Below are positions 6,810 through 42,947 of a stretch of 43,050 nt of DNA, piece after piece (positions within the stretch are counted from its first letter, which is position 1; each line of letters begins with the position of its first letter). The notes below the pieces were generated by a model that was not told the DNA's origin, did not search any database, and saw only the letters and a list, made by a program, of their open reading frames with translations. Location of the stretch: the NCBI GenBank assembly GCA_964575755.1, contig CAZNRH010000001.1, positions 181,347-224,396 of the forward strand. The letters run 5' to 3'. The position numbers and the translations under genes are program-made. This DNA is from an uncultured Candidatus Saccharibacteria bacterium (lineage in GTDB: Bacteria > Patescibacteriota > Minisyncoccia > Phycocordibacterales > JABMNX01).

Positions 6810-7418
6810 TTACATACGGTTTTTGAGAGCGCTTTTAATTGTTTCTGTGTCGGAGTATTCGAGTTCTGAGCCTGTTGAAAGACCTCGTCCAAGGGTTGAG
6901 ACTTTTATATCAGTTGTAAAGATTATAGGCTCAAGCACTCTTTGAATATATTGTATGGTGTTTTCTCCTTCTGGATTTATCGAGAAGGCGAGTATAATCT
7001 CTTTTAATCCTTCTTTTTGGCGTGCTGTAACCACACGCTCTAACTCTTTTGTTCGTATCGATTTGTCAGGATCTTTGTCTAGAATCGGCACCGTCCCACC
7101 AACTACAAAATAGTATCCATCATACCCCTTAGCCCTTTCTATATTATCTAAGTCCACATCTTTCTCTACAAGCATGAGAGTGGAAGACTCTCTGTTTTTA
7201 TTCGCGCATATTAAACATAGTTCTTTGTGATTAGAATGAAAACGGCTACACATTGTACATGCTTTAGTATCATCTTTAATTGAACCAATAAGTCGTATTA
7301 ATTCACTTCTATAACTATGAGATGAAGAAAGTAAAAAATACACAAAGCGACTTGCTTGGCGTGGACCAATACCAGGTAATCGTTTTAAAAGTTCTGTAAG
7401 TTTTTGAATACTATCCAT
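6810..7418 (-). CDS. recR: recombination protein RecR
   Basis: N-terminal LPGIGPRQA helix-hairpin-helix, a C4 zinc finger (C..C....C..C) and a Toprim region. Confidence 0.9.
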   Translation of the reverse strand: MDSIQKLTELLKRLPGIGPRQASRFVYFLLSSSHSYRSELIRLIGSIKDDTKACTMCSRFHSNHKELCLICANKNRESSTLMLVEKDVDLDNIERAKGYDGYYFVVGGTVPILDKDPDKSIRTKELERVVTARQKEGLKEIILAFSINPEGENTIQYIQRVLEPIIFTTDIKVSTLGRGLSTGSELEYSDTETIKSALKNRM

Positions 7419-7457
7419 TGTTTAGGAATTAAGAATAATGAATTAGGAAGTAGAGGG

Positions 7458-8831
7458 TTAGAAGTCGTCATCGTCTGAAGAACTACTGGTGTCTCCAAAG
7501 TCACTATTATCAATTGATAGGAATGTTGTTCTTTTCTCGTCGAAGTATAAGTCTATCTTACCGGTGGGACCATTTCGATGTTTTTCTACAAGAATCTCAG
7601 CTATGTTTGGTTTATCTGAGGTCTCATTCATTTTATCATCTCTGTGAATAAACATTACTACATCAGCGTCCTGCTCAATAGAACCAGAGTCACGCAAGTC
7701 TGAAAGACGAGGGCGACCCCTACGTTGCTCAACTGCACGTGATAGCTGTGAGAGTGCTATTACAGGTATGTCTAGCTCACGTGCCATACCTTTGAGTGCT
7801 CGAGAAATCTCAGTGACCTGTTGAACCATAGAGTCAGAATTTTTCCCTTGTGTTGGCATAATAAGCTGAAGATAATCGACTATGATAAGTTCAAGACCTT
7901 TCTCGTGTTTTAGGCGACGTGCTACGGAACGCATTTGAAGAACGTTACTTGAGGACTTGTCGTCAATATAAATAGGTGCTTCAGATAAGACACTTAGTGC
8001 CTCTTGAAGCTTGTCGAACTCTTCATCTGTTGAAAGGTTACCCGTACGCAGTTTCCATGCGTTCACGTTCGATTGCGCCGCAAGCATACGGTCTACGAGC
8101 TGTTGTGAGTCCATCTCAAGAGAAAATATACCAACTGGTGTCTTATGATTAACTGCGGCTTGGCGTGCTATATCGAGTGCTAGAGCGGTTTTACCCATTG
8201 ACGGTCGTGCAGCAATAATTATTAAATCTGATTTCTGGAATCCTGCGAGGAGATTATCGAGACCTTTAAAACCACTTTTTATTCCACGAATTTCATCCTT
8301 TGATTGGTGGAGAAGTTCTATTCTTTCCCAGGCTTCAGTAAGGGTTTCTTTAATGGTTATAAACTTCTGGAGGGTGGGGGAGTTGGTTACTTCAAAAATA
8401 CTTGATTGAGCTGAATCGAGAGTGTACTCGATATCATTTTCTTCATTGTAGCCGAGTTCTGAAATATGGTCAGCGGCCGAGATTAGGTTACGCATCATAA
8501 ACTTCTTTTGTACGATATCTGCGTAATGTTTGGCGTTTGCTGCAGAAGGCACAAAGTCTACGAGTTCAGATAAATATGTACCACCACCTATTTGGTCAAA
8601 TTGCTTTTTTTCTTTTAGTTTTGTTGAGAGTGAGAGTATGTCGATTGGTTCGTTTTTTTCAAAAAGTTCAAGCATTGAATTATATATAATTCGATGCTTT
8701 TCACTGTAAAAGGAGTCTGGCTTTACGGTATCTATAATGTCGTGCATTGCTTCTGGTTTAAGCATGATAGAACCCAGAAGAGCTTTTTCCGAGTCTAGAT
8801 TTTGAGGTGGGATACGTACGCCTTTTGCCAT
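7458..8831 (-). CDS. dnaB: replicative DNA helicase DnaB
   Basis: PPQNLDSEKALLGSIM N-terminal domain, Walker A ARPSMGKT, and the conserved C-terminal RecA-like region LSQLSR..E.R.....RP.LSDLR.SG.IEQDAD. Confidence 0.95.
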   Translation of the reverse strand: MAKGVRIPPQNLDSEKALLGSIMLKPEAMHDIIDTVKPDSFYSEKHRIIYNSMLELFEKNEPIDILSLSTKLKEKKQFDQIGGGTYLSELVDFVPSAANAKHYADIVQKKFMMRNLISAADHISELGYNEENDIEYTLDSAQSSIFEVTNSPTLQKFITIKETLTEAWERIELLHQSKDEIRGIKSGFKGLDNLLAGFQKSDLIIIAARPSMGKTALALDIARQAAVNHKTPVGIFSLEMDSQQLVDRMLAAQSNVNAWKLRTGNLSTDEEFDKLQEALSVLSEAPIYIDDKSSSNVLQMRSVARRLKHEKGLELIIVDYLQLIMPTQGKNSDSMVQQVTEISRALKGMARELDIPVIALSQLSRAVEQRRGRPRLSDLRDSGSIEQDADVVMFIHRDDKMNETSDKPNIAEILVEKHRNGPTGKIDLYFDEKRTTFLSIDNSDFGDTSSSSDDDDF

Positions 8832-8837
8832 GCGGGA

Positions 8838-8846
8838 ATTGTAGCA
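8838..8846 (-). promoter_or_regulatory. extended -10 box TGcTACAAT, 6 nt from the dnaB ATG (leaderless-type)
   Basis: The minus strand reads TGCTACAAT-tcccgc-ATG, and no SD is present. Confidence 0.45.
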
Positions 8847-8932
8847 TAAAGTGAAAGGCGTAGAACATCAAAATTCTATGTCTTTTGTTGGCTTCTTGTG
8901 CTTATTGTGTGGATTAATAAATATTATCTTGA

Positions 8933-10447
8933 CTACTGCTTACTCTTAACCAGCTCAGGGCCATAGTCTGTATCAGAGACATCAAAGCCTTTTTTGGCTA
9001 ATTTTTCTCGTATTGAGTCTGCGGACTTCCAATCTTTATCTTTTCTTGCTTCTTCTCGTTTCTGTACGAGCTCTTGGATATCATCAGGTACTTTTTTCAC
9101 CTCTATTTTTTTTGTCTCACCTTTAAGCATAGTATCCATTTGTTTATATGATTCTATAAATCCAATACTCAATACACGATTCATGTCTAAAATCGTGACA
9201 CGTTTATCTTTCTTGTTTACAGATTTGTCACTCATTAGCTCGTGCAGGAGGGCTATTGATTGGGCGGTATTAATATCGTCATTAATAAACTTATGAAATC
9301 GCTCTTGGTATGAAGAGTTAATAGTGCCGTTTCGTGAACCGAGATCTAGAAATTGTTTATGAAGCTTGATAAGTGCTGTGTTGGCACCCTCAAGTGCCTC
9401 CCATGTGAAATTCATAGGTGAGCGGTAATGTCCTGTTAGTAACCAATAGCGGTATGTGAAGGCGGGGAAGCCTCTGTCTGCAAGGTGACGAAGATATATA
9501 GTATTTCCTTTTGATTTGCCAATTCTTTTGTTTTCTATGGTGATAAATGCATTATGCATCCAGTAATTTACAAATTTCTTACCGGTTACTGCTTCTGTTT
9601 GAGCTATTTCATTGTTGTGATGAATTGGTTTGTGGTCTAGTCCACCTGTGTGAACATCAAACTGTTTGCCTAAGTATTGTGAAGACATAGCACTACACTC
9701 TATATGCCAACCAGGGAAACCAACTCCCCATGGTGATTTCCATCCGAGTTCTTTACCAGAGTCTGTCTTTGTTGTTGAGAACTTCCAAAGAGCAAAGTCT
9801 TGCTGTGTGTGCTTGTCTTTTCTTTTTCCTATGCGAGAAATTGTATCTTCATCTTCTTTAGAAATACCACCAAGTGCTCCATAGTTTTTAAACATTTTTG
9901 TATCAAAATATACACCATCCTTAAGTGTGTAAGTGTAGCCTTTTTCTTCTAGGGTTTTTATAAACGCAATTTGCCCATCTATATGCTCACTTGCTCGCGG
10001 GAAAGCAAATGGTGTTTTGATATTCAACTCTTTTAAATCTTCTTTAAATTCTTTTATATATTTAGTACCAATTTTCTTCATCTCTGTGAGCGTGATAGAT
10101 AGGCCCTCTTTTTTAAGCGCAGTCATCATTTTATCGTCACCACTGTCTCCGTCTGACACAAGGTGTCCTACGTCGGTGATATTAATAATATGCTTCACTT
10201 TATAACCGTTGTATTCAAACATCCGCCTTAGTATGTCAGAGAATATATAAGAACGAAGATTACCTATATGAGCAGTGCTGTAAACTGTTGGCCCACAACT
10301 GTACATACTCACACCACCTTGTCTTATAGGCTCAAACTGCTCCTTCATTTTTGAAATAGAATTAAAAAGTCGTATTGGTGTCGACTTCTTTTTTACTGCA
10401 GAGTTATTATATTTTTTCTTAAATAACAAAAATAGGTCGAAATTCAT
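8933..10447 (-). CDS. cysS: cysteinyl-tRNA synthetase
   Basis: MYSCGPTVYSTAHIGNLRSY (HIGN) and a KMSKS-like RIGKSKGN motif, with class I CysRS architecture. The start is set at MNFDLF (10447), the element's 3' ATG, not the track's 10474. Confidence 0.9.
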   Translation of the reverse strand: MNFDLFLLFKKKYNNSAVKKKSTPIRLFNSISKMKEQFEPIRQGGVSMYSCGPTVYSTAHIGNLRSYIFSDILRRMFEYNGYKVKHIINITDVGHLVSDGDSGDDKMMTALKKEGLSITLTEMKKIGTKYIKEFKEDLKELNIKTPFAFPRASEHIDGQIAFIKTLEEKGYTYTLKDGVYFDTKMFKNYGALGGISKEDEDTISRIGKRKDKHTQQDFALWKFSTTKTDSGKELGWKSPWGVGFPGWHIECSAMSSQYLGKQFDVHTGGLDHKPIHHNNEIAQTEAVTGKKFVNYWMHNAFITIENKRIGKSKGNTIYLRHLADRGFPAFTYRYWLLTGHYRSPMNFTWEALEGANTALIKLHKQFLDLGSRNGTINSSYQERFHKFINDDINTAQSIALLHELMSDKSVNKKDKRVTILDMNRVLSIGFIESYKQMDTMLKGETKKIEVKKVPDDIQELVQKREEARKDKDWKSADSIREKLAKKGFDVSDTDYGPELVKSKQ

Positions 10448-10567
10448 CCCGTTAGAAATAAGACACAGAAACATATGTAACTGAGTATCTTATTTGGTTA
10501 TAATTTATAATATCGACTTCCATGTTCTTTTTAAGGTTAAGTGTCTGTGATTTCTAACGGGATTCAT
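10445..10567 (-). repeat. start-codon-anchored helix element, copy C5 (between the corA stop and the cysS start)
   Basis: The sense 5' arm ATCCCGTTAGAAAT (10550-10563) pairs perfectly with the 3' arm ATTTCTAACGGGAT (10446-10459). The second helix is AGACAC with GTGTCT. ATGAAT flanks both sides. The 5' ATG lies 15 nt after the corA stop. Confidence 0.85.
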
Positions 10568-10582
10568 ATGATAGGTTTTATA

Positions 10583-11515
10583 TTACAGCCAATGGTTTTT
10601 CTTGAAGAAGGTGAACATAAGTATGCCTGCAAATCCCATTATGCCCATAATGATCCAAAAATCAAATGGTCCTCCAATAAAAGGCATATGTACAGCATTC
10701 ATGCCAAACACAGAAGCAATAAGAGACAGGGGGAATGTCACGAACGCCATTATGGTGAGTACTTTCATAACCTCATTTTGTTTCGTGGAAAGCAGAGAAT
10801 TATTTGTGGCTCTTAACTCATGTAGTGTGTCTGAGTGGACAGAGATACTATTTTTAATCCTAAAGTATTCTCCCATAATAGAGTTTAAATGATTTGAGAA
10901 ATCTTCACCAAAAAATATTTTCCCAGCATCGTTAAATGAAGATAATATTTCTTGGTGCGGACTGAGGGCTTGTTTCAAATTAAGTAGGTCACGACTTACG
11001 TTAGAGATAGCAACAACCATTTCTTTTTCCTTACCTTCAAAGATGTCCTCTTCGATTATTTCGAGAGAGTCATCTATAAATTCTAGTTCGTGTTCTAAAG
11101 ATTTATAAAGTTTACGAACCATGTAGAAGAAAAGATAGCCAGCATGATCTCCAATATCGCTTTTATCTAAAACAGAGTTAACCTCAAATACTTTAGAAAA
11201 CTTGTGTAAAGGATCAACACTGTCATATCGTGTGGTAATGAGGAAGTTTTTCCCAATTATAAAATCTATCTCTTGGTTAATATCTCCATTGTGAGTATGT
11301 TTAAAAGCAGGGAAGTGTAAAATAAGATATATAAAGTTGGCATACGTATCAACACGTGGTTTAAGGGTAGGGAGCAGTAGCTCATCAGCAACAAGTGGGT
11401 CGATGTCATAATCGTCCATAATACTACGAACCTCCTCTGGGGTAGGAGATTCAACGTCGACCCATGTTAGGTGTTTATGTTTATAAACTGAAATCATTTG
11501 CTTAATTGTAAACAT
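10583..11515 (-). CDS. corA: magnesium/cobalt transporter CorA
   Basis: C-terminal two TM segments with the GMN motif (VFGMNAV) and a CorA-type cytoplasmic domain. Confidence 0.9.
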   Translation of the reverse strand: MFTIKQMISVYKHKHLTWVDVESPTPEEVRSIMDDYDIDPLVADELLLPTLKPRVDTYANFIYLILHFPAFKHTHNGDINQEIDFIIGKNFLITTRYDSVDPLHKFSKVFEVNSVLDKSDIGDHAGYLFFYMVRKLYKSLEHELEFIDDSLEIIEEDIFEGKEKEMVVAISNVSRDLLNLKQALSPHQEILSSFNDAGKIFFGEDFSNHLNSIMGEYFRIKNSISVHSDTLHELRATNNSLLSTKQNEVMKVLTIMAFVTFPLSLIASVFGMNAVHMPFIGGPFDFWIIMGIMGFAGILMFTFFKKNHWL

Positions 11516-11585
11516 TCTTTTAAATGATTACAATAGAGTTAGTGGGTTATCTTTACAATAAATAATAAAGTAATGTATTTTAAAA

Positions 11586-11614
11586 TTGACCCGCTTGTAT
11601 GATTCTGAGATAAT
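11586..11614 (+). promoter_or_regulatory. candidate promoter TTGACC-17-GATAAT, 11 nt from the ATG of the S41 peptidase gene
   Basis: Hexamers at 11586-11591 and 11609-11614. No SD lies before the ATG at 11626. Confidence 0.4.
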
Positions 11615-11625
11615 TATCCAACACA

Positions 11626-12873
11626 ATGAAACAACTTGATCGACAACAAAAAATAAACATAGGCATAGGAGCTCTTGTACTAGCTACTGGTATATTTTTC
11701 TTAGGTATGTTTATTGGAGAAAATAATGTAAAGCAATCAGAAGTAAACTCTTTTTCAGAAAAAATATCTGAGAGTCCAGATGATGTAGATTTCACACCTT
11801 TGTGGACCGCGTGGAAAACCATTGATGATAAATATACTTCCTCAAAGTCAGGCGAAGTGGTAACAGACCAAGAAAAAGTGTGGGGCATGATAAAGGGGTT
11901 GGCGAGATCTTTAGACGATCCATATACAGTGTTTTTTCCACCAGCTGATGCTGAGATATTTGAAGCTGATATAAGTGGCAACTTTGAAGGTGTTGGTATG
12001 GAGATTGGTATACGAGATGGAATCCTGACAGTTGTGTCACCACTTAAAGATACTCCAGCGTATCGTGCTGGGATTTTAAGTAGAGACAAGATAACAGAGA
12101 TAGATGGAGAGAGCACGGAAGAATTTTCAGTCGACAGAGCAGTGAAGCTTATACGAGGAGAGCGAGGCACAGAAGTAGTATTTACAATCGCAAGAGAGGA
12201 CGAATCTGAACTACTAACAATATCAGTGGTACGTGACGTTATACAAATACCGACCATTAGTACTGACTCAGAAGACGGGGCTGGATTAAGAGAAGATGGA
12301 GTATACGTTATTCAACTCTATAACTTCTCAGCATTTTCTCAACATTTATTCAGGAAGGCATTGCGTGAGTTTATTTCTTCTGGGTCAAATAAATTAATTC
12401 TTGATCTGCGTGGTAACCCAGGCGGGTATCTTGAGGCATCTGTGGATATGGCAAGTTGGTTCTTGCCAGTAGGTAAAGTTGTAGTAGAGGAAAGTTTTGG
12501 TGGAGATAAAAAATCAGTAGTCTATCGTTCTCGTGGATATGATGTATTTAATGAAAACTTAAAAATGGCAATAGTTATGAATCGTGGATCTGCATCCGCT
12601 TCAGAAATATTAGCTGGAGCACTTAGAGAGCATGATATAGCCACGTTAATAGGGGAGCGTTCTTTTGGAAAAGGCTCAGTACAAGAACTTATTGATATTA
12701 CAAGCGACACCTCTTTAAAGGTCACGATAGCGAGATGGTTAACACCGCTTGGCAACTCAATTTCAGATGAGGGACTAAAGCCAGATATAGAAGTCGAGAT
12801 GACAATAGAAGACATAGAAAATGGCACAGATCCACAAATCGAGAAAGCCGCAGAATTTCTTATATCGCTCTAA
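11626..12873 (+). CDS. carboxy-terminal processing peptidase (S41 family, Ctp/Prc-like)
   Basis: N-terminal TM, a PDZ region, RGNPGGYL, SASASEILAGAL and GERSFGKGSVQ motifs. Confidence 0.9.
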   Translation: MKQLDRQQKINIGIGALVLATGIFFLGMFIGENNVKQSEVNSFSEKISESPDDVDFTPLWTAWKTIDDKYTSSKSGEVVTDQEKVWGMIKGLARSLDDPYTVFFPPADAEIFEADISGNFEGVGMEIGIRDGILTVVSPLKDTPAYRAGILSRDKITEIDGESTEEFSVDRAVKLIRGERGTEVVFTIAREDESELLTISVVRDVIQIPTISTDSEDGAGLREDGVYVIQLYNFSAFSQHLFRKALREFISSGSNKLILDLRGNPGGYLEASVDMASWFLPVGKVVVEESFGGDKKSVVYRSRGYDVFNENLKMAIVMNRGSASASEILAGALREHDIATLIGERSFGKGSVQELIDITSDTSLKVTIARWLTPLGNSISDEGLKPDIEVEMTIEDIENGTDPQIEKAAEFLISL

Positions 12874-12978
12874 AAGATATAACCTAGGCATGGTTATATG
12901 TTGACAGTGTTGTTTTGTTGCGTTGTTTTAAGTCTAAAAATAGCCTAAATGTTGTTGAGTGTGTATACTACCAAGCAT

Positions 12979-13099
12979 ATGAATCCCGTACGAAATTACG
13001 GACACAAAATCAAAACATGGAGAAAACGTCGATATTTAATAAAAAATTTAATCTAGAGACAAGGACTGTTTAAGTTCGTGTCCTATTTCGTACGGGATG
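12979..13099 (+). repeat. start-codon-anchored helix element, copy C3 (upstream of rplI); the best-preserved copy
   Basis: ATCCCGTACGAAAT (12983-12996) pairs perfectly with ATTTCGTACGGGAT (13085-13098). The second helix is GGACAC (13000-13005) with GTGTCC (13078-13083). Mini-ORF at 13017-13073. TATACT (12964-12969) lies 9 nt before the 5' ATG. Confidence 0.9.
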
Positions 13100-13540
13100 A
13101 AAGTAATATTACTCAGTGACGTGAAGGGTTCGGGGAAGAAATATGAAGTTAAGGATATTTCTGATGGATATGCTATGAACTTTTTGCTTCCCAATGGTCT
13201 TGCAGAGCGCGCTACACCTGAGCGTATAAAACGGATGGAAGAAATTAAAAAAGAACAGACACAAGAAGAACGTATTCAAGAAGATTTACTGGAAAAGACA
13301 TTAGCTTCTTTAAAAAGTGTTCACTTAGAAATAGAGGCAAAAGCAAGCGACAAAGGGGGTCTTTTCAAAGGTATTACAGTGGCTAATATAGTTGAGGAAT
13401 TAAAGAGACAGGTACGTGTTAATATTCCAGCTGAAATAATCGTATTGGAAAAACCAATTAAGGAAGTGGGAAAGTATACAATAGGAGTTTTAATGGGAGA
13501 AAATAAAGCCTCATTCAAACTAACTGTTTTGGCTAAATAA
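13097..13540 (+). CDS. rplI: 50S ribosomal protein L9
   Basis: [37 protein letters not shown] is a canonical L9 N-terminus, and the 147-aa length fits. Confidence 0.9.
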
Positions 13541-13598
13541 AGATTGAAAAATAAAAAACACTTATTATATAGTAAGTGTTTTTTATTTTTCAATCTTT
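13539..13598. terminator. 26-bp perfect inverted repeat with an 8-nt loop; bidirectional terminator between rplI and rpmA
   Basis: AAAGATTGAAAAATAAAAAACACTTA (13539-13564) pairs with TAAGTGTTTTTTATTTTTCAATCTTT (13573-13598). Verified base by base. Confidence 0.7.
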
Positions 13599-13609
13599 AT
13601 AATTATTTT

Positions 13610-16694: not shown

Positions 16695-16737
16695 AATAAA
16701 ATAAACGGCTGGAGTTACTCCAGCCGTTTATTTTATT
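16695..16737. terminator. 20-bp perfect stem with a 3-nt loop (AATAAAATAAACGGCTGGAG-TTA-CTCCAGCCGTTTATTTTATT)
   Basis: Verified base by base. Lies downstream of the transglycosylase gene. Confidence 0.75.
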
Positions 16738-16782
16738 ATTAGAAGGCTTGAGAACATAGGTAGTTTTCGTAACATTTCTAAT

Positions 16783-16992
16783 ATGTGCGAAATAGATAAT
16801 ATGTGGGTTGATGAAGAGTATCGAAGCCGTGGGATTGGTAAGGAACTAATGAGTGATGTTGAAATATGGGCTAAAGAGAAGGGGACAAGGAAAATGAGGG
16901 TGATTACTTCATGTAAAAATGAAAAAAGGATCAAGTTTTATAAAAGAGAAGGATTTAGTGAGTACGATTTAATCCTAGAGAAAGATATATAA
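16783..16992 (+). pseudogene. GNAT acetyltransferase remnant (C-terminal half only)
   Basis: Contains the acetyl-CoA motif A (VDEEYRSRGIGKELM) and the C-terminal FYKREGF. The N-terminal ~80 aa of a normal GNAT are absent, and the sequence immediately upstream is a terminator. Confidence 0.6.
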
Positions 16993-17326
16993 ATTAATAT
17001 ATAGCACAAGCACTTTATATGGTTTAATTGTTTGGTTTGAGGGTAGAGGACTAGCAATCTTTCATGCTATTTATTGAATTGTTATAACGATAGGAAAGAG
17101 GTACTTTAATGAGTAAAGAGTGTCGCACAATATATCTTTTGCGTCCTAATACTCTATTAAAATAACCATCTAATACAACACAGTCTGATACTGTTCTTCT
17201 GCATGTCTTTATTGGCTTGTTGTAGTACTTTTACGTAATCTTTTGTATATAAAGACTCTGACTTGCAATTTTATTGATATTAAAGTAAAAATAGGATTAG
17301 AAATAATCAAATACATGGAGGAAAAC

Positions 17327-17614
17327 ATGGCAGAAAAAATCGTGCCCACAGACGAAAATACCATACTAATCCATCCACAATGTAGACTCGTAACAATGTC
17401 TATCATCTATGGTTTACCAGATCACAAAAGCATCATTAATGAGTTTGTCTGGCAACTACACGATTTGGTTCCAGAATTGGAACGAGTTCGTAGATTTCTT
17501 AAGTTCTGGGATAACAATATTGATGGACCTATTAAGTTGGTTCAAATAACATATCCTGGAATTAAGATTCCACGCTCTGTTAGGTGTGTGGATTCGTTAC
17601 TTGTGATTAATTAA
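17327..17614 (+). CDS. Usg-like family protein
   Basis: L.TMSIIYGLPDHKSIINEFVWQLHDLVPELERVRRFLKFWDNNIDGPI matches the Usg family signature (PDH...WQ..DL.P.....FL.FW...L.GPL). GGAGG lies 5 nt before the ATG at 17327. Confidence 0.65.
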   Translation: MAEKIVPTDENTILIHPQCRLVTMSIIYGLPDHKSIINEFVWQLHDLVPELERVRRFLKFWDNNIDGPIKLVQITYPGIKIPRSVRCVDSLLVIN

Positions 17615-23653: not shown

Positions 23654-23679
23654 AAATGCCACATGTGCCTGTGGCATTT
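23654..23679 (-). terminator. hairpin AAATGCCACA-(6 nt)-TGTGGCATTT
   Basis: 10-bp perfect stem downstream of the hydrolase pseudogene. It belongs to a family of related terminator hairpins in this window. Confidence 0.6.
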
Positions 23680-26229: not shown

Positions 26230-29200
26230 TTACTCTGTCGATGTTTCCGCTGATGCCTCAACTGTCACGGTACGAGTTACCTTATTGGCAATATTACCGG
26301 CAATGTCTGACACATTATAGATTACAGTGTACACCCCTGCAGTGGCAGTATCTACTGTGTTCTCCACCGTAACAGATGATGTGACATCACCATCAGTGTC
26401 ATCAAGAGCTGTCGCACCTTCATCAAAGTAGGTTTCATCTACAACAAGGATTATCTCTTCTTTACCAATAAGTGTGATGATGGGTGATGTGGTGTCTTTC
26501 ATAGTGAGTACAGTAACCGCCCTCGTAACCTCTGTTGCTTGATTGCCTGCAGCATCGGATACGTTGTAAGTGATAGTGTACACTCCTTCTGTATCAGTAA
26601 GTACACTGTCGCCCCCTATAATAATATTTGTAGTAATGTCACCATCTACATCATCTGTTGCCACAACACCTTCCTCTGTGTAACTATCTCCAACGTTAAG
26701 CTCAAAAGCATTTTCCGCATTGAGTGTAATTACAGGTGAAGTGATATCGACTGGAATATTATTTGATGAAGTACTAGAGGCAACACCTCCACCATTCTCA
26801 CTTGAATCATCTGCTTCTGTGTACGGATCATAGACAACCACTTGTCGCTCTGCTGTTGTTGTGTTTCCATCGTTATCAGTTGTGCGATAAATAATCGTAT
26901 ACGTGCCAACTTCTGATGTATCAATTTGAATATTGCTGAAATCGCCCACATCCACATCATCCACACTCGCATAAAGTCCAAGATTATTGCCCTTATCATC
27001 AGTAATGACAGCGCCGAGGTCAGAATATATAAATCCGACTTCAATTTCTGCTGGATTGTTGCCTAATATTGTTATTGTTGGAGAGATCAAAGAGGTATTA
27101 TTTGCGTCACTGGAATCTGTTCCGCCAGGAGTTGTTCCAGACAAAAGTGTTTTCAATTCTGTTAATTCTTTTTTGTTCAAGCATACTTCACCACCAGTAT
27201 CTCCTATACACAATTCCTCTTTTGCAATAATTCTACCAACCACTAATGTTCCGTCACTTTCTTGATCTGTTACGAATTCCTCTACTGTCCCAACAAGAGT
27301 AAGTGAATTCACTTGACCCTGCAGGACTTCAATCTGTTCCTGCTGATCTTGAATAGATTTTACCAAAAGTGGTGTAATCCTACCGTAATCAACACCCCAC
27401 AATTCATCACTTTCAAGTTTAGCAGATACAGCTTCTGGATATATTTCATAAAGTTCTTGAGCAATAAAACCTATTGTATCAATATCACTGGTCTTCATAT
27501 TGAAATCCCTAACCTTAATTTTAAGCAAATCTTCAAGCGTATAATGAGTATCGCGAATATTTTCTTTAGCTCGTCTATCAGAAGTTGTATTATAAACGAC
27601 TCCTCCTGCACCATCACCACTAATTGTCGCTATCATTGTATTATCACCATCAACAAACCCTACAAATTTAGTATTACTACCTGGATTGATGTTTGGACCT
27701 GTTCTAATATATATACCTGAAGCATAATCGTTCGTGCTGTCATTACGAAATACTGTCTGGAAACCAGCTGATTCGGTCCCAATAGAATTAAAATGCCCTA
27801 CAGAATCAATATCCACTTTCTTGACATTATTTGTCAAAAATTCAAGAATACCATCACCAGTACTGAACATCCCGCTATCCGTATCACCTGCAGAATCAAA
27901 AGTATATCCATTATTATTTACACCTCCCGCACCAGGGGTTCCTCCTCTTGCTCTTATTCCTCCCGTAACATCTAAGCTAACAGCTGGACTAACATTACTT
28001 ATTCCAACCTTTCCAGAACCAGCTCCTAGAATCAAATCACCCCACCCAAATCCTGGATTCAAAACATTAATATAACCTTTCATCGTTGATCCGTTAAATC
28101 CAAATCGTAAACCACTGTTGGTATCGGTATTATTTGAAATGATTACTTGTTGGTTGTCTGTGTCATTGCTAATATACTCTGGCACTTCTATCAATAAATT
28201 AGAAATAGAAGTTGTTGTGCCAATACTGACATATCCACTACTGTTTATCCTCATTCTTTCATTATTATTGGTATAAAATTGCAAAAGACCGTCCGAGGTG
28301 CTGAACATTCCACTATCCGTATCACCTGAAGAATCAAAAGCATATCCATTATTATTTACACCTCCCGCACCAGGAATTCCTCCTCTTGCTCTTATTCCTC
28401 CAGTAACATCTAAACTAACAGCTGGACTTATTGTCCCAATGCCTATTTTTCCGTCTTGTTGAAGAGTCAACACAGTTCCGCTTCCTGGATCATCAAATGT
28501 TGTGCTAATTTTTAATTTATGAGAATCGCTTGCGTCTGTTCCAAAACTCCAATCTGTGCTAATCAAGCCAGAATAAAAAGTTATATACTCGTCGCTAGTA
28601 GAATTATCTGGAGCATAAAATCTAAGCGATGCTTCACCACTTCCTATTTGTTCAATCTTTGAAATAAGATAATTATCGTCACCATAGATATGTAATTTTT
28701 CGTTAGGTGAATCCGTCCCAATTCCTACTTGTCCCTGCGTTGCATCCACAAACAATGCGTTGTAATTTATTCCTTCTGCCACTCTAAAATCACCCATTAT
28801 TTCCAATGGTGTGGCAGGGCTTGTTGTGCCAATTCCGACACGATTATTAAATGAATCAACAACCAATGTATTTGTATCGAATCGCGCGTCAGTGGCAAAG
28901 GTAGAAGTTGAGTTAAACCACGATTGTCCTGTGTTTGTAAGAAGTGTTGACGATGCATTACCTAATGTAGAAAGTCCTGTAAACCATGATGTCCCAGATA
29001 CTGAAAATTGTGTTGTGCTAGCATTACCAAAAGTAGCAAGGTTTGTGAACCATGATTTATCTGATACTGAAAGCCGAGTTGAAGATGCGTTACCCAAGGT
29101 TGTCAATCCAGTAAACCAAGAAAGTCCGCTGTTAGTTAATTGTGTTGTTGACGCATTGCCGAGAGTTGTTTGTCCGGATACCACTAAATATCCTGAAAGT

Positions 29201-30195
29201 GATTGATCGGTTGATGAGGCGGTAGTGAAAGCTGAATGACCTGCTATTTGCACAGTTGATGACGCATAAAATGCACCCTGAGACCACCACGGCATTGTAG
29301 AGCTTGCTGTTAAATTTGTTACTCCGTAGTTTGTCGCAAATGTCCAGTTTTCCTCAGCTGTTTTAACTATGTTGCCACTCCAATAAAGAACGCCCGCATT
29401 GTTGTAAAGAGCGTTAGATGTAACATCAGGTGTAGAACTTGAAATCAAAATACCTTCTGAAAAAGTGCTAGTGGCGGTAAAATAGGAATCACCAGAAACT
29501 GAGAATGTCGCAGACGGTGTTGTTGTGCCAATACCCAATCGCCCCCCCGAAGTAAATGTCAAAAGTTGTGTTCCTGTATCAGTAATAATACGAAATAAAT
29601 CAGCAACTTGACTGGCAAAGCCACGAATTACGAGGGGAGTCGCCGAAGTGGTTGTTGCTTCAACAGTTAGTTCGGCTGTCGAGAAAGGGGTTGTTGTTCC
29701 AACTACCGACTGACCTGTGCCAAAAACGTGATCAGAGGTAAATGCTTGCGCAGTAGCACCAATCCTTTGTCGCGGAGTCATCTCCGAATCAGACCCGACT
29801 GTTACACCCAGCCAATACGTGTCACCGGTAAAATCAAGAGTCATAGTATTACCCGTGCCCGAACCAAGAAGAACCCTAAAAAGCCCACTTGATAAAGAAA
29901 CAGCGTTACCGTTTGCTGTTGTATGAGTGCCTGTCCAGAGAGTAGTTCCACTTGTTGAGGCATCGTAAATACGAAATATTATATTGTAGTTGCCATCGGA
30001 AACATTTGCGCCTGTTGAGTCTTGTAGCACCCCCTGATATGGAATCTGTTTGTTAATGCCAGGAGCAGCCAAAGCAAATCCAGCAGGCATTATTGTTAAT
30101 ATTGTAAAAATAATTAAAACAAAACCAATTAAGAGTTTTTTACCCTTACTCTTGTAAGTTCTGATGTTTTTTAATCTTATGCTTTTGAGTTTCAA
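26230..30195 (-). CDS. 1321-aa tail-fibre-like surface protein: signal/TM, fibre-type repeats, an internal Peptidase S74 (intramolecular chaperone) domain, a coiled coil, and three C-terminal Ig-like (DUF5011-type) domains
   Basis: The S74 signature TSDRRAKENI...GFIAQELYEIYPEAV...GVDYGRITPLLVKSIQDQQEQIE spans aa ~872-965. There are three repeats of P.ITL.G...........Y.D.GA.A.DD.DG..T.........T...G.YT..Y.V.D..GN.A....R.V.V. The only in-frame start upstream of the signal peptide is a TTG (30195). Confidence 0.85.
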   Translation of the reverse strand: MKLKSIRLKNIRTYKSKGKKLLIGFVLIIFTILTIMPAGFALAAPGINKQIPYQGVLQDSTGANVSDGNYNIIFRIYDASTSGTTLWTGTHTTANGNAVSLSSGLFRVLLGSGTGNTMTLDFTGDTYWLGVTVGSDSEMTPRQRIGATAQAFTSDHVFGTGQSVVGTTTPFSTAELTVEATTTSATPLVIRGFASQVADLFRIITDTGTQLLTFTSGGRLGIGTTTPSATFSVSGDSYFTATSTFSEGILISSSTPDVTSNALYNNAGVLYWSGNIVKTAEENWTFATNYGVTNLTASSTMPWWSQGAFYASSTVQIAGHSAFTTASSTDQSLSGYLVVSGQTTLGNASTTQLTNSGLSWFTGLTTLGNASSTRLSVSDKSWFTNLATFGNASTTQFSVSGTSWFTGLSTLGNASSTLLTNTGQSWFNSTSTFATDARFDTNTLVVDSFNNRVGIGTTSPATPLEIMGDFRVAEGINYNALFVDATQGQVGIGTDSPNEKLHIYGDDNYLISKIEQIGSGEASLRFYAPDNSTSDEYITFYSGLISTDWSFGTDASDSHKLKISTTFDDPGSGTVLTLQQDGKIGIGTISPAVSLDVTGGIRARGGIPGAGGVNNNGYAFDSSGDTDSGMFSTSDGLLQFYTNNNERMRINSSGYVSIGTTTSISNLLIEVPEYISNDTDNQQVIISNNTDTNSGLRFGFNGSTMKGYINVLNPGFGWGDLILGAGSGKVGISNVSPAVSLDVTGGIRARGGTPGAGGVNNNGYTFDSAGDTDSGMFSTGDGILEFLTNNVKKVDIDSVGHFNSIGTESAGFQTVFRNDSTNDYASGIYIRTGPNINPGSNTKFVGFVDGDNTMIATISGDGAGGVVYNTTSDRRAKENIRDTHYTLEDLLKIKVRDFNMKTSDIDTIGFIAQELYEIYPEAVSAKLESDELWGVDYGRITPLLVKSIQDQQEQIEVLQGQVNSLTLVGTVEEFVTDQESDGTLVVGRIIAKEELCIGDTGGEVCLNKKELTELKTLLSGTTPGGTDSSDANNTSLISPTITILGNNPAEIEVGFIYSDLGAVITDDKGNNLGLYASVDDVDVGDFSNIQIDTSEVGTYTIIYRTTDNDGNTTTAERQVVVYDPYTEADDSSENGGGVASSTSSNNIPVDITSPVITLNAENAFELNVGDSYTEEGVVATDDVDGDITTNIIIGGDSVLTDTEGVYTITYNVSDAAGNQATEVTRAVTVLTMKDTTSPIITLIGKEEIILVVDETYFDEGATALDDTDGDVTSSVTVENTVDTATAGVYTVIYNVSDIAGNIANKVTRTVTVEASAETSTE

Positions 30196-34978: not shown

Positions 34979-36382
34979 TTAATATTCTTCAATGAATCTA
35001 GTAAGTAGTCTCACTGGTTCTCCAGCGGCTCCATTAGAGAGATTATCACTAGGTACTGTTGTCATGCGCGGTGCTATATCTATATGTGCCCATACACACC
35101 CCCTGGGATAGTTTTTTGTGAATTGGTATAGAAACATTCCTCCGTTAATAGCTCCTCCATATCTTGGGTTCTTTGTAGCGAGGTTAGCTACATCAGCTAT
35201 TCTTCCTTGTACACCTTCGTTATATTCCTCCCATAGAGGTAGTGGCCAAACATAGTCCCCTGTTTCCTCTCCAAATTGAGTAAGTTTTGCCACTAAATTA
35301 CTGTCTTGAGACATTACAACAGATGCTTGTTGACCTAATGCCACAAGAGATGCTCCTGTAAGTGTTGCTACATCTATAACTGCTTTTGGATTGTATTTCT
35401 TTGCGTATGTTAGTGCATCAGCTAATACAAGCCTCCCCTCCGCATCAGTATCTACTACTTCAATAGTTTTCCCTGACATAGATTTAAGTACGTCTCCTGG
35501 ACGAAATGAGCTTCCTGACACCATGTTTTCAACTGAAGGAATTAAAGCGATCACATTTTTCTTTAATTTAAGGCGCGCCACGAGTGCGATTGTCGCCATA
35601 ACTGCGGCACCGCCAGACATATCCATATGCATTCCGGATAACCCACCGCCTATTTTTAAATTAAGTCCACCGCTGTCAAAAGTAACTCCTTTACCTACAA
35701 GCACAATTGGTTTTTCGCTTTTCTTTCCACCTTTATATTCCATAACAATAAACTTCGGTTCTTCTGGTGAACCTTTTGCAACTCCAAGAATTGCACCCAT
35801 TTTTAATTTTTCTAGTTCTTTTTTACCAAGAGATGAAGTCTGTATTTTTGTATTTCTAGAAAGTCTTTTAGCGTGAGCTGTTAATATTCTAGGTGTCATA
35901 TCGCCACCCGGAGTGTTCGACATAAGTCTGCACTCGTTAACCATTTCTCCAATTACCCTACCTTTAGCTATACCTTTTTTAATTTCAGAACTTTTTACGT
36001 TTGTAATAGATATTTCCTCTATATCTCCCCAGCCTGCTTTTGGTTTAGTTTTAAAATCATGGAACTCGTAACCAGCCATCAGTAAATTTTGTGCAACAAT
36101 AGACCCGAGCTCTTTTGGAGCCAAGTTTGATATGTTTTTAAACTCATTAATATCTATAGATATCTTATTTACTTTATATAACTTGGCTGTTCGAACAACT
36201 CTCCTAATGACTTTTATAAATTTCCGGAAGTTATCTTTCTCTGCTTTTACTATCTTTATTTCAATTCTAGTTAGTTTTTTTGCATCCTCAATAAATCTAG
36301 TTTGCCCTTTTTCAGTGAAAGTTATTTGAGTTATTTTACTAGGTTGTTTTACAGTTTTTTTTTCTTGCGTAGTTATTTTCAT
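34979..36382 (-). CDS. pepA: leucyl aminopeptidase (M17)
   Basis: VGKGVTFDSGGLNLK and VDTDAEGRLVLADAL are M17 active-site motifs. The start is the 3' ATG of element C4. Confidence 0.9.
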   Translation of the reverse strand: MKITTQEKKTVKQPSKITQITFTEKGQTRFIEDAKKLTRIEIKIVKAEKDNFRKFIKVIRRVVRTAKLYKVNKISIDINEFKNISNLAPKELGSIVAQNLLMAGYEFHDFKTKPKAGWGDIEEISITNVKSSEIKKGIAKGRVIGEMVNECRLMSNTPGGDMTPRILTAHAKRLSRNTKIQTSSLGKKELEKLKMGAILGVAKGSPEEPKFIVMEYKGGKKSEKPIVLVGKGVTFDSGGLNLKIGGGLSGMHMDMSGGAAVMATIALVARLKLKKNVIALIPSVENMVSGSSFRPGDVLKSMSGKTIEVVDTDAEGRLVLADALTYAKKYNPKAVIDVATLTGASLVALGQQASVVMSQDSNLVAKLTQFGEETGDYVWPLPLWEEYNEGVQGRIADVANLATKNPRYGGAINGGMFLYQFTKNYPRGCVWAHIDIAPRMTTVPSDNLSNGAAGEPVRLLTRFIEEY

Positions 36383-36500
36383 CCCGATAGTAATAGGACA
36401 CCGACTTAAACAGTCTTTGTACTAAAATTAAACTTTTTGTTAATAATTAATTTTGTTTTCATATATTATGTTTATGTCCGTGATTTCGTACGGTATTCAT
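36380..36500 (-). repeat. start-codon-anchored helix element, copy C4 (between the aspS stop and the pepA start)
   Basis: The sense 5' arm ATACCGTACGAAAT (36483-36496) faces a partly decayed 3' arm ATTACTATCGGGAT (36381-36394). The second helix is GGACAT with GTGTCC. Mini-ORF at 36406-36462. The 5' ATG lies 10 nt after the aspS stop. Confidence 0.8.
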
Positions 36501-38864: not shown

Positions 38865-38894
38865 TTAAATGCCCCAAGTACCTGGGGCATTTAA
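38865..38894 (-). terminator. hairpin TTAAATGCCCCA-(6 nt)-TGGGGCATTTAA
   Basis: Perfect stem downstream of tyrS. It is related to the hairpins at 23654-23679 and 42915-42947. Confidence 0.65.
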
Positions 38895-42914: not shown

Positions 42915-42947
42915 CAAAAAATACCCCAAGTACCTGTGGCATTTTTT
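42915..42947. terminator. imperfect hairpin ATACCCCA-(6 nt)-TGTGGCAT flanked by A- and T-runs
   Basis: Differs at two positions from the hairpin at 38865-38894 and has the same AGTACC loop. Confidence 0.45.

Follow-up and report, generated by a model that had tools for sequence, protein, structure and literature searches.

A putative mobile hairpin at start codons in Patescibacteria, and a possible translational relay through its short open reading frames

We analysed a stretch of 43,050 nucleotides (the window) from an uncultured Candidatus Saccharibacteria bacterium (GenBank assembly GCA_964575755.1, contig CAZNRH010000001.1, positions 181,347 to 224,396). The host genome (G000) comprises 645 kb on 7 contigs and belongs to the Patescibacteria; its ribosomal protein bL9 shares 44-46% identity with records under the names Patescibacteria group and Candidatus Nomurabacteria. 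Within the window, a hairpin-forming repeat of about 118 nt is present in five copies (C1 to C5), which stand at the starts of a P-type ATPase gene, rmuC, rplI (which encodes bL9), an M17 aminopeptidase gene, and cysS, respectively. The original prediction was that these elements contain a conserved open reading frame (ORF) of about 18 codons that might be coding. All five of these mini-ORFs are present where they had been placed, and all of them lie within the one repeat. Some features had been overlooked: the elements sit exactly on start codons, they are flanked by a duplicated ATGRA, and a second ORF begins at the ATG on their left side.

Across the family, the element is about 118-140 nt long and has terminal inverted arms that form a stem of 14+6 bp. 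In the rplI copy, the order is ATGAA, the left arm, an A/T-rich interior of ~70 nt that contains the mini-ORF, a small hairpin, the right arm, and the ATGAA of the gene (Table 1). As predicted, the TAA stop codon of the mini-ORF lies in the loop of the small hairpin, GACTGTTTAAGT(C/T), and no Shine-Dalgarno (SD) sequence precedes the mini-ORF ATGs in the copies from the window. The gap between this stop codon and the gene's ATG is 23 nt. We folded positions 12970-13110 and obtained a free energy of -38.3 kcal/mol (z = -4.9 relative to 200 shuffles). Across 19 genomic copies, 6 of the 25 consensus base pairs show compensatory changes. A search of the whole window against Rfam 15 gave no matches at the gathering score, and at the E-value threshold it gave only a chance match to mir-989 (18.9 bits, versus a gathering score of 59).

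Table 1. Positions of the element copies, their parts, and tandem arrays. Positions are those of the window except for the arrays, which are given by genome and contig.
Feature	Position	Strand	Remarks
Copy C1, before P-type ATPase gene (ATG 1919)	1802..1923	+	mini-ORF overshoots; empty site in metagenome contig
Mini-ORF of copy C1	1843-1929	+	TAA lost; ends 11 nt past the A of the gene's ATG
Copy C2, before rmuC (ATG 4735)	4616..4739	+	ATGGA duplicated
Mini-ORF of copy C2	4658-4711	+	fused in frame with the left-ATG ORF (4616-4711)
Copy C5, before cysS (CysRS; ATG 10447-10445)	10443..10567	-	TTAGAA/TTCTAA arm type
Mini-ORF of copy C5	10523-10452	-	stops at TAA in right arm, 4 nt before gene ATG
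Host -10-like box TATACT (copy C3)	12964..12969	+	9 nt before left ATG; putative promoter of the originally leaderless rplI; TATACT or TATATC in same-genus empty sites
Left copy of duplicated target, ATGAA (copy C3)	12979..12983	+	left ATG opens a 25-codon ORF (12979-13056)
Left inverted arm TCCCGTACGAAAT-TAC-GGACAC (copy C3)	12984..13005	+	14+6-bp stem with right arm
Mini-ORF of copy C3	13017..13073	+	57 nt, 18 codons + TAA; proposed relay ORF; holds the conserved GTCGA island
Small hairpin GACTG-TTTAA-GTT(C) (copy C3)	13064..13076	+	mini-ORF stop in loop
Right inverted arm GTGTCC-T-ATTTCGTACGGG (copy C3)	13078..13096	+	pairs with left arm
rplI (ribosomal protein bL9), after copy C3	13097..13540	+	right duplicate of the target is ATGAA 13097-13101; residues 1-46 align to positions 1-46 of the Pfam L9 N-terminal domain profile
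Copy C4, before M17 aminopeptidase gene (ATG 36382-36380)	36378..36500	-	left-ORF stop overlaps mini-ORF start
Mini-ORF of copy C4	36462-36406	-	start overlaps the stop of the left ORF (ATGA)
Array loci	G054 C6:5893-6284, C8:4501-4754, C3:2820-3084, C12:11828-12081; G000 C6:3118-3326		head-to-tail elements

The right end of the element always reads ...CGGG-ATG, with the ATG being the true start codon of a gene. In the window, the Pfam domains of the five downstream genes start at or near residue 1, and therefore the right ATG is the true start. A covariance model that we built from 19 copies identified 26 places in the host genome. A motif search for the right end of the element, run on the same 645-kb genome, found 20 right ends, and 19 of these end in ATG. 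Every arm motif that was found in this genome falls in an element of ~120-140 nt or in a tandem on contig C6. Furthermore, among 103 non-redundant copies from six genomes, 87 have an open frame of at least 60 codons that begins at the right ATG, and the covariance model scores every copy far higher in the orientation of the gene than on the opposite strand. The downstream genes in the window have unrelated functions, and one of them (cysS) is essential. It follows that the element does not serve as a regulatory leader common to these genes, nor can it shut off their expression. The restriction to start codons and to a single orientation could reflect true targeting, or it could reflect the survival of harmless insertions alone.

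The ATG of the gene and the next 1-4 bases are repeated at the left end of the element. The bases that match between the two ends include ATGAA, ATGGA, ATGTAT, ATGAG, and ATGATA, and in some subfamilies only ATGA, ATGG, or ATGT. For the 88 copies that have an ATG at both ends, which are the copies that we scored in the analyses below, the identical run led by ATG was 3 nt in 4 copies, 4 nt in 10, 5 nt in 50, 6 nt in 23, and 7 nt in 1, so that it was at least 5 nt in 74 of them. A duplication whose length varies between 4 and 7 nt would be unusual for a single transposase.

Sites without the element occur in relatives. In five of five genomes from the same genus, the rplI site is empty: TATACT (once TATATC) is followed by 7-10 nt and then by ATGAAAGT or ATGAAAAT, with a start of ATGAAA. 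The corresponding site in the window reads TATACT, 9 nt, and ATGAA[element]ATGAAAGT. Empty sites for two other copies were found in metagenome contigs, one of which joins position 1793 to 1919 (ATPase) with 8 other letters, while the other joins 10447 to 10578 (cysS) with 13 other letters. In the DNA contigs of four metagenome runs, we found no presence/absence polymorphism within the same strain; what they showed was limited to empty sites in relatives that have diverged and to joints that the assembler made between copies (such as 4641 to 13071).

The element has a patchy distribution. Matches to the covariance model (E <= 1e-5) were found in 17 of 61 genomes that were sampled from the order, with 0-24 matches per genome, as compared to 8 of the 61 when relatives were searched with blastn, which missed most copies. 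Within the genus, 2 of 6 relatives had a match, and just 1 of 150 other genomes from the phylum did. A blastn search with the element as query found nothing among plasmids or phages. Elements also occur in head-to-tail arrays of two or three, sometimes of mixed subfamilies, which share ATGAA at their junctions (Table 1). In the triple array, units one and three keep an ORF that bridges the element (see below), as do three other copies of the middle unit's subfamily.

Given its terminal inverted repeats, flanking duplication and empty sites, many copies, small size, lack of an internal transposase, and patchy occurrence, the element appears from sequence comparisons to be a non-autonomous mobile hairpin, resembling MITEs (miniature inverted-repeat transposable elements), that is inserted at start codons. 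We considered whether the Y1/HUH (IS200/RAYT-like) transposases might mobilise it. Contig C1 of the host genome contains four genes of this type, which encode proteins of 221-241 amino acids (16750-17475, 50738-51403, 64457-65128, and 162523-163194). Three of them are flanked on both sides, and the fourth upstream only, by their own perfect palindrome of ~25 nt, and these palindromes are unrelated to the arms of the element. Also, Y1 genes are present in 14 of 17 genomes with the element versus 25 of 44 genomes without it, and one genome (G004) has 4 element matches and no Y1 match. These genes are not convincingly linked to the element, and we set this candidate aside. Genes of the Phage_integrase family are present in all five genomes tested, which is uninformative either way. 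The window also contains three copies of a 26-nt palindrome, AAATGCC.C..GT.CCTG.GGCATTT (23654-23679, 38867-38892, and 42919-42944), which may be REP-like (repetitive extragenic palindromic) hairpins or terminators, and which may belong to the type found around the Y1 genes.

Many genes in the host genome look leaderless, and the use of SD sequences is rare. We examined the first ATG of 649 long ORFs from across the genome, and this view is based on two results. First, -10-like hexamers peak at 6-9 nt upstream of these ATGs (61, 55, 40, and 30 occurrences, versus a background of ~17). Second, SD-like tetramers at a suitable distance precede just 37 of the 649 starts. At the elements, 39 of 87 copies have a -10-like box 5-11 nt upstream of the left ATG. 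SD-like motifs precede the left ATG in 4 copies and the gene's ATG in 0 of 88. A -10-like box at the leaderless distance from the gene's ATG was seen in 10 of 88 copies, which we take to be about the background rate. Occupied starts begin with ATGAA more often than starts across the genome do (59 of 88, versus 159 of 649), which points to some sequence preference.

For each of the 88 copies, we took the RNA to begin at the left ATG and computed its minimum-energy fold. The mean minimum free energy was -37.6 kcal/mol. At least two bases of the gene's AUG were paired in 84 of the 88 copies, whereas the left AUG was unpaired in 74 of them. In the rplI copy, the A and the U of the gene's AUG pair into the base of the stem. 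The insertion thus leaves the original initiation site in place, now in the form of the left ATG, while the true one becomes buried.

The left ATG opens an ORF (MNPVR...) that either spans the whole element or ends early, in which case a second ORF with its own ATG (the mini-ORF) continues to the gene. We compared the scored copies to shuffled sequences in which the arms were kept and the dinucleotide composition of the interior was preserved, and we required the last ORF to end between -25 and +4 relative to the gene's ATG. A single ORF bridges the element in 24 of 88 copies (5.8 expected from the shuffles) and a two-step bridge does so in 42 (11.8 expected), while 6 copies have the final ORF only (18.1 expected) and 16 have no bridge (52.2 expected). 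Overall, the left ATG is bridged to the gene's ATG by one or two ORFs in 66 of 88 copies, versus 17.6 in the shuffles. The last stop codon is most often the right-arm TAA (CTCTAACGGGATG), which lies 4 nt upstream of the gene's ATG (34 copies); in 13 copies it is a TGA that overlaps the gene's start (ATGA, +4); and in 11 copies, which belong to the window's subfamily, it is the TAA at -23. A terminal ORF of at least 17 codons is present on the sense strand of 66 of the 88 copies and on the antisense strand of 5. The length of the element modulo 3 has a mild bias, with 41 of 88 copies in class 1.

To account for the relatedness of the copies, we clustered their interiors and combined one median p value per cluster by Fisher's method, which gave p = 2.7e-8 for 39 clusters (75% identity) and p = 0.004 for 11 clusters (70% identity). 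A threshold of 60% put 87 of the 88 copies in one cluster and was unusable because random AT-rich interiors align at ~61% identity, so we report the other two. A statistic that does not depend on the choice of window, the longest closed ORF with an ATG start within the element, averaged 25.8 codons, versus 17.2 codons in the shuffles and 5.0 on the antisense strand (Fisher p = 9e-6 with 39 clusters and p = 0.024 with 11 clusters). Finally, we froze the definitions and applied them to an independent set of 34 copies from 13 further genomes. Of the 30 copies that could be scored, 23 have a complete relay of ORFs from the left ATG to the gene, versus 8.8 expected.

These results bear on whether the mini-ORF is coding, as had been proposed. 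The frame of the mini-ORF is probably translated, given that open frames that start with ATG and reach the gene are in excess over composition in subfamilies that differ greatly from one another and also in the independent set; the peptide, on the other hand, is not conserved. We tested the window's subfamily (14 copies) for frame, for codon position, and for the ratio of nonsynonymous to synonymous polymorphism (pN/pS). In the frame of the mini-ORF, none of the 14 copies has an internal stop codon, while the other two frames have 1-6 and 2-4 stops per copy. The ATG is kept in 13 of the 14 copies and is shifted downstream by exactly 3 nt in two copies. Two copies have one extra base, and there the left ORF is not separated from the mini-ORF but merges with it into a single frame.

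A functional micropeptide, selected for its sequence and benefiting either the element or the host, would also explain why the ORF is intact in most copies of this subfamily, and a loose K-[SV]-x-I-I-N-like pattern does recur in some related subfamilies. However, the synonymous and conservative changes that had been cited in favour of coding do not hold up in the larger alignment: non-consensus letters number 18, 44, and 34 at codon positions 1, 2, and 3, and pN/pS is 0.72 in frame versus 1.00 and 0.51 in the other two frames, so there is no signature of purifying selection on the amino acids. Furthermore, the interiors of different subfamilies, and hence their peptides, are unrelated except where the arms are read, and in some copies the left ORF replaces the mini-ORF or fuses with it. 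A GTCGA-like motif is found in 50 of the 88 copies, and relative to the nearest upstream ATG it is spread over all three frames (15, 15, and 17 copies), which implies that it is a nucleotide signal. (The longer island AAGTCGA(N)ATTAT, for example at 13027-13040, is kept across otherwise unrelated subfamilies, whatever the frame, and may act as a transposition signal or an RNA motif.) We consider a selected micropeptide to be highly improbable.

We propose instead that the element carries a translational relay that keeps the host gene expressed, with the mini-ORF as one link of the relay. On the sequence evidence, we view this explanation as somewhat probable. Insertion duplicates the ATG and 1-4 further bases, so that the native initiation site (promoter, 5' end, and first 4-7 nt) survives as the left ATG. 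The real start codon is displaced by ~120 nt downstream, where it has no SD sequence and is paired at the foot of a hairpin whose energy is about -38 kcal/mol. We infer that transcripts would still begin at or near the left ATG, from the old promoter, and that ribosomes would load there as they did before the insertion. They would then read either one ORF or two successive ORFs, the second being the mini-ORF, and would melt the hairpin as they translate. Termination would occur 4 nt before the gene's ATG, or overlapping it (ATGA), or, in the window's subfamily, 23 nt before it, and would be followed by reinitiation on the displaced gene. If this is so, it is the act of translating the frame that counts, and not the identity of the encoded peptide. 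Both termination-reinitiation and RNA unfolding are described as accepted models of translational coupling in a passage of PMC12548453.

Several observations weigh against this proposal. Besides the 16 of 88 copies without a bridging ORF and the 6 with the final ORF only, the independent set contains 4 and 3 such copies, respectively, out of 30. Broken relays also occur before intact genes, as in the copy before the ATPase gene, whose mini-ORF overshoots the gene's ATG by 11 nt. The 23 nt between the stop codon and the gene's ATG in the window's subfamily is long for reinitiation. In copies with two ORFs, the distance from the first stop to the second ATG ranges from -41 to +50 nt, and it is within -4 to +20 in just 24 of 48 cases. 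The internal AUG of the relay is itself paired in 46 of 57 minimum-energy folds, and a -10 box is recognisable at the leaderless distance in only the 39 of 87 copies noted above. As for the statistics, the window of -25 to +4 was picked after the data had been seen, which the independent set and the window-free statistic answer only in part, and the copies are related, so that the p value by cluster depends on the threshold (0.004 to 2.7e-8).

Alternatively, the open frame might be a by-product of constraints on the nucleotides, such as transposition signals (the GTCGA island being a candidate) or RNA or DNA structure, with the gene being expressed from an internal promoter or from a new 5' end close to its ATG that would be left when an RNase III-type enzyme cleaves the hairpin. 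The GTCGA-like motif, which is kept irrespective of frame, fits this explanation, as do the 22 of 88 copies without a complete relay, most of which still precede intact genes. The long perfect stem is a plausible substrate for RNase III, and a passage in a review reports that rnc is retained in Patescibacteria (PMC12641178). As to the promoter, for which GTCGATAWT had been suggested as a -10 box, the GATAAT within GTCGATAAT matches TATAAT at 5 of 6 positions. However, a consensus scan of 12850-13200 found no promoter-like pair of hexamers, -10-like hexamers are scattered through the interior with no sharp position, and, as mentioned above, only 10 of the 88 copies have a -10-like box at the leaderless distance from the gene's ATG. 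Constraints on nucleotides also do not predict an excess of stop-free frames that start with ATG and reach the gene, which we saw across unrelated interiors and in the independent set. We think that the by-product explanation is unlikely, although it deserves to be weighed.

Another possibility is that the element is taken out ahead of translation: the RNA hairpin might be excised like an intron and the ends rejoined within the duplicated AUGRA, or the ribosome might jump over the base of the stem, from the left AUG to the identical right AUG, in the manner of T4 gene 60. Since ATGRA stands on both sides of the stem, removal anywhere in the repeat would restore the original mRNA exactly, and the take-off and landing sequences would be the same; the stem also places the two AUGs side by side. 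But neither excision nor bypass needs internal ORFs, and these are in excess. Also, there is no match to a ribozyme or intron family in Rfam at the gathering score, and bacteria are not known to splice such hairpins. Overall, excision or bypass seems quite improbable to us.

A literature search, conducted mostly at the level of search entries, found no description of this element or of repeats that target start codons in Patescibacteria. We compared the element to better-known systems. Like the Correia elements of Neisseria, which are ~100-150 nt long with terminal inverted repeats and a short duplication, it has many gene-adjacent copies, a stable hairpin that would be cotranscribed, and a patchy distribution. 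Correia elements, however, duplicate TA, are found in either orientation and at many intergenic positions, and act via promoters and RNase III cleavage, whereas the element described here is oriented with the gene, is followed in most copies by a long frame from the right ATG, and duplicates the start codon itself. Similarly, REP sequences and REPINs (REP doublets), which RAYT (Y1/HUH) transposases mobilise, form hairpins from inverted doublets of ~100 nt, have many copies, and are relevant here because the host genome contains Y1_Tnp genes. REPINs are not tied to start codons and do not have a target duplication.

The closest analogue that we identified is the mycobacterial interspersed repetitive unit (MIRU), and the element may represent a MIRU-type strategy in a different architecture and in a leaderless setting. 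The repeat unit of MIRUs measures ~46-101 bp; such units are direct and often tandem, lack long inverted arms, and lie between the genes of operons in Actinobacteria that use SD sequences. MIRUs and the element are both short repeats, apparently mobile, that occupy start codons, and in both the stop codon of an internal ORF is coupled to the gene's start (ATGA, -4). When we tested this likeness, we found that the element lies at the start codon in the gene's orientation and that the stop is at -4 in 34 and at +4 in 13 of 88 copies; the 11 copies with the stop at -23 resemble MIRUs less well. In contrast to MIRUs, the element has hairpin arms of 14+6 bp, duplicates the ATG and 1-4 bases, lies mostly between a promoter and a leaderless start, often has two successive ORFs, and is found in Patescibacteria. 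Since the architecture differs, we consider it an analogue and not a member of the MIRU family. In the passage of PMC12548453 that concerns them (the MIRU study reportedly being that of Supply et al. in 1997), MIRUs are said to "insert themselves at start codons"; their internal ORF is coupled at -4, an arrangement believed to keep the cost of insertion as low as possible. That source also describes short upstream ORFs (uORFs) whose sole task is to supply the following start codon with a ribosome or to open its structure, with a spacing of -4 or a few nucleotides, which is similar to what we propose. The usual leader of this type is fixed and specific to one gene, whereas here the relay would be mobile and its starting point would be a duplicate of the site at which the gene itself is initiated.

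Some other features of the window are listed here for completeness. No tRNA genes were found anywhere in it. At 1184-1307, there are two to three repeats of a ~52-nt unit with the inverted motifs CTGTTT/AAACAG; in three metagenome runs, the summed contig depth of the bin with this region was ~4-5 times that of the neighbouring bins. An ORF of 1321 codons (26230-30195, - strand) contains a 189-nt direct repeat (27826-28014 and 28264-28452; 83% identical, 438 nt apart), which looks like an internal repeat of a large protein. Lastly, long near-perfect palindromes with arms of 21-32 nt lie at or just after the ends of listed ORFs (13537-13600, 6763-6804, and 16695-16737) and may be bidirectional terminators.

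The element has practical consequences for annotation, as it can be used to recognise true start codons and leaderless promoters in genomes of Patescibacteria that are poorly known. Gene callers lengthen or misplace these starts: the list of ORFs for the window begins the ATPase frame at TTG 1877 and the cysS frame at ATG 10474, both of which are inside elements, and it is probable that automatically annotated genomes of this kind contain N-terminal extensions that are false. The roughly 100 natural variants could also be used to study how reinitiation depends on distance, on frame, and on the unfolding of a hairpin.

If the relay is correct, then a selfish element can occupy the start codons of genes that are essential (cysS, rplI) in a genome of 645 kb by means of its own translational bypass, and this would be a second, independent case of the trick that was proposed for the mycobacterial MIRUs, now in a leaderless setting. 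A broader and more doubtful idea, which we offer tentatively, is that these hairpins find the first bases of leaderless genes by something other than simple recognition of a sequence, and that they pay for this position with a ribosome relay of one or two steps. Such targeting might sense the open promoter complex or the mRNA's 5' end, in keeping with a duplication that varies from 4 to 7 nt. If both the targeting and the relay are correct, then the element would represent a new specificity of integration, and 70S ribosomes that load on a leaderless AUG would be passed through uORFs to a structured start codon that has no SD sequence.

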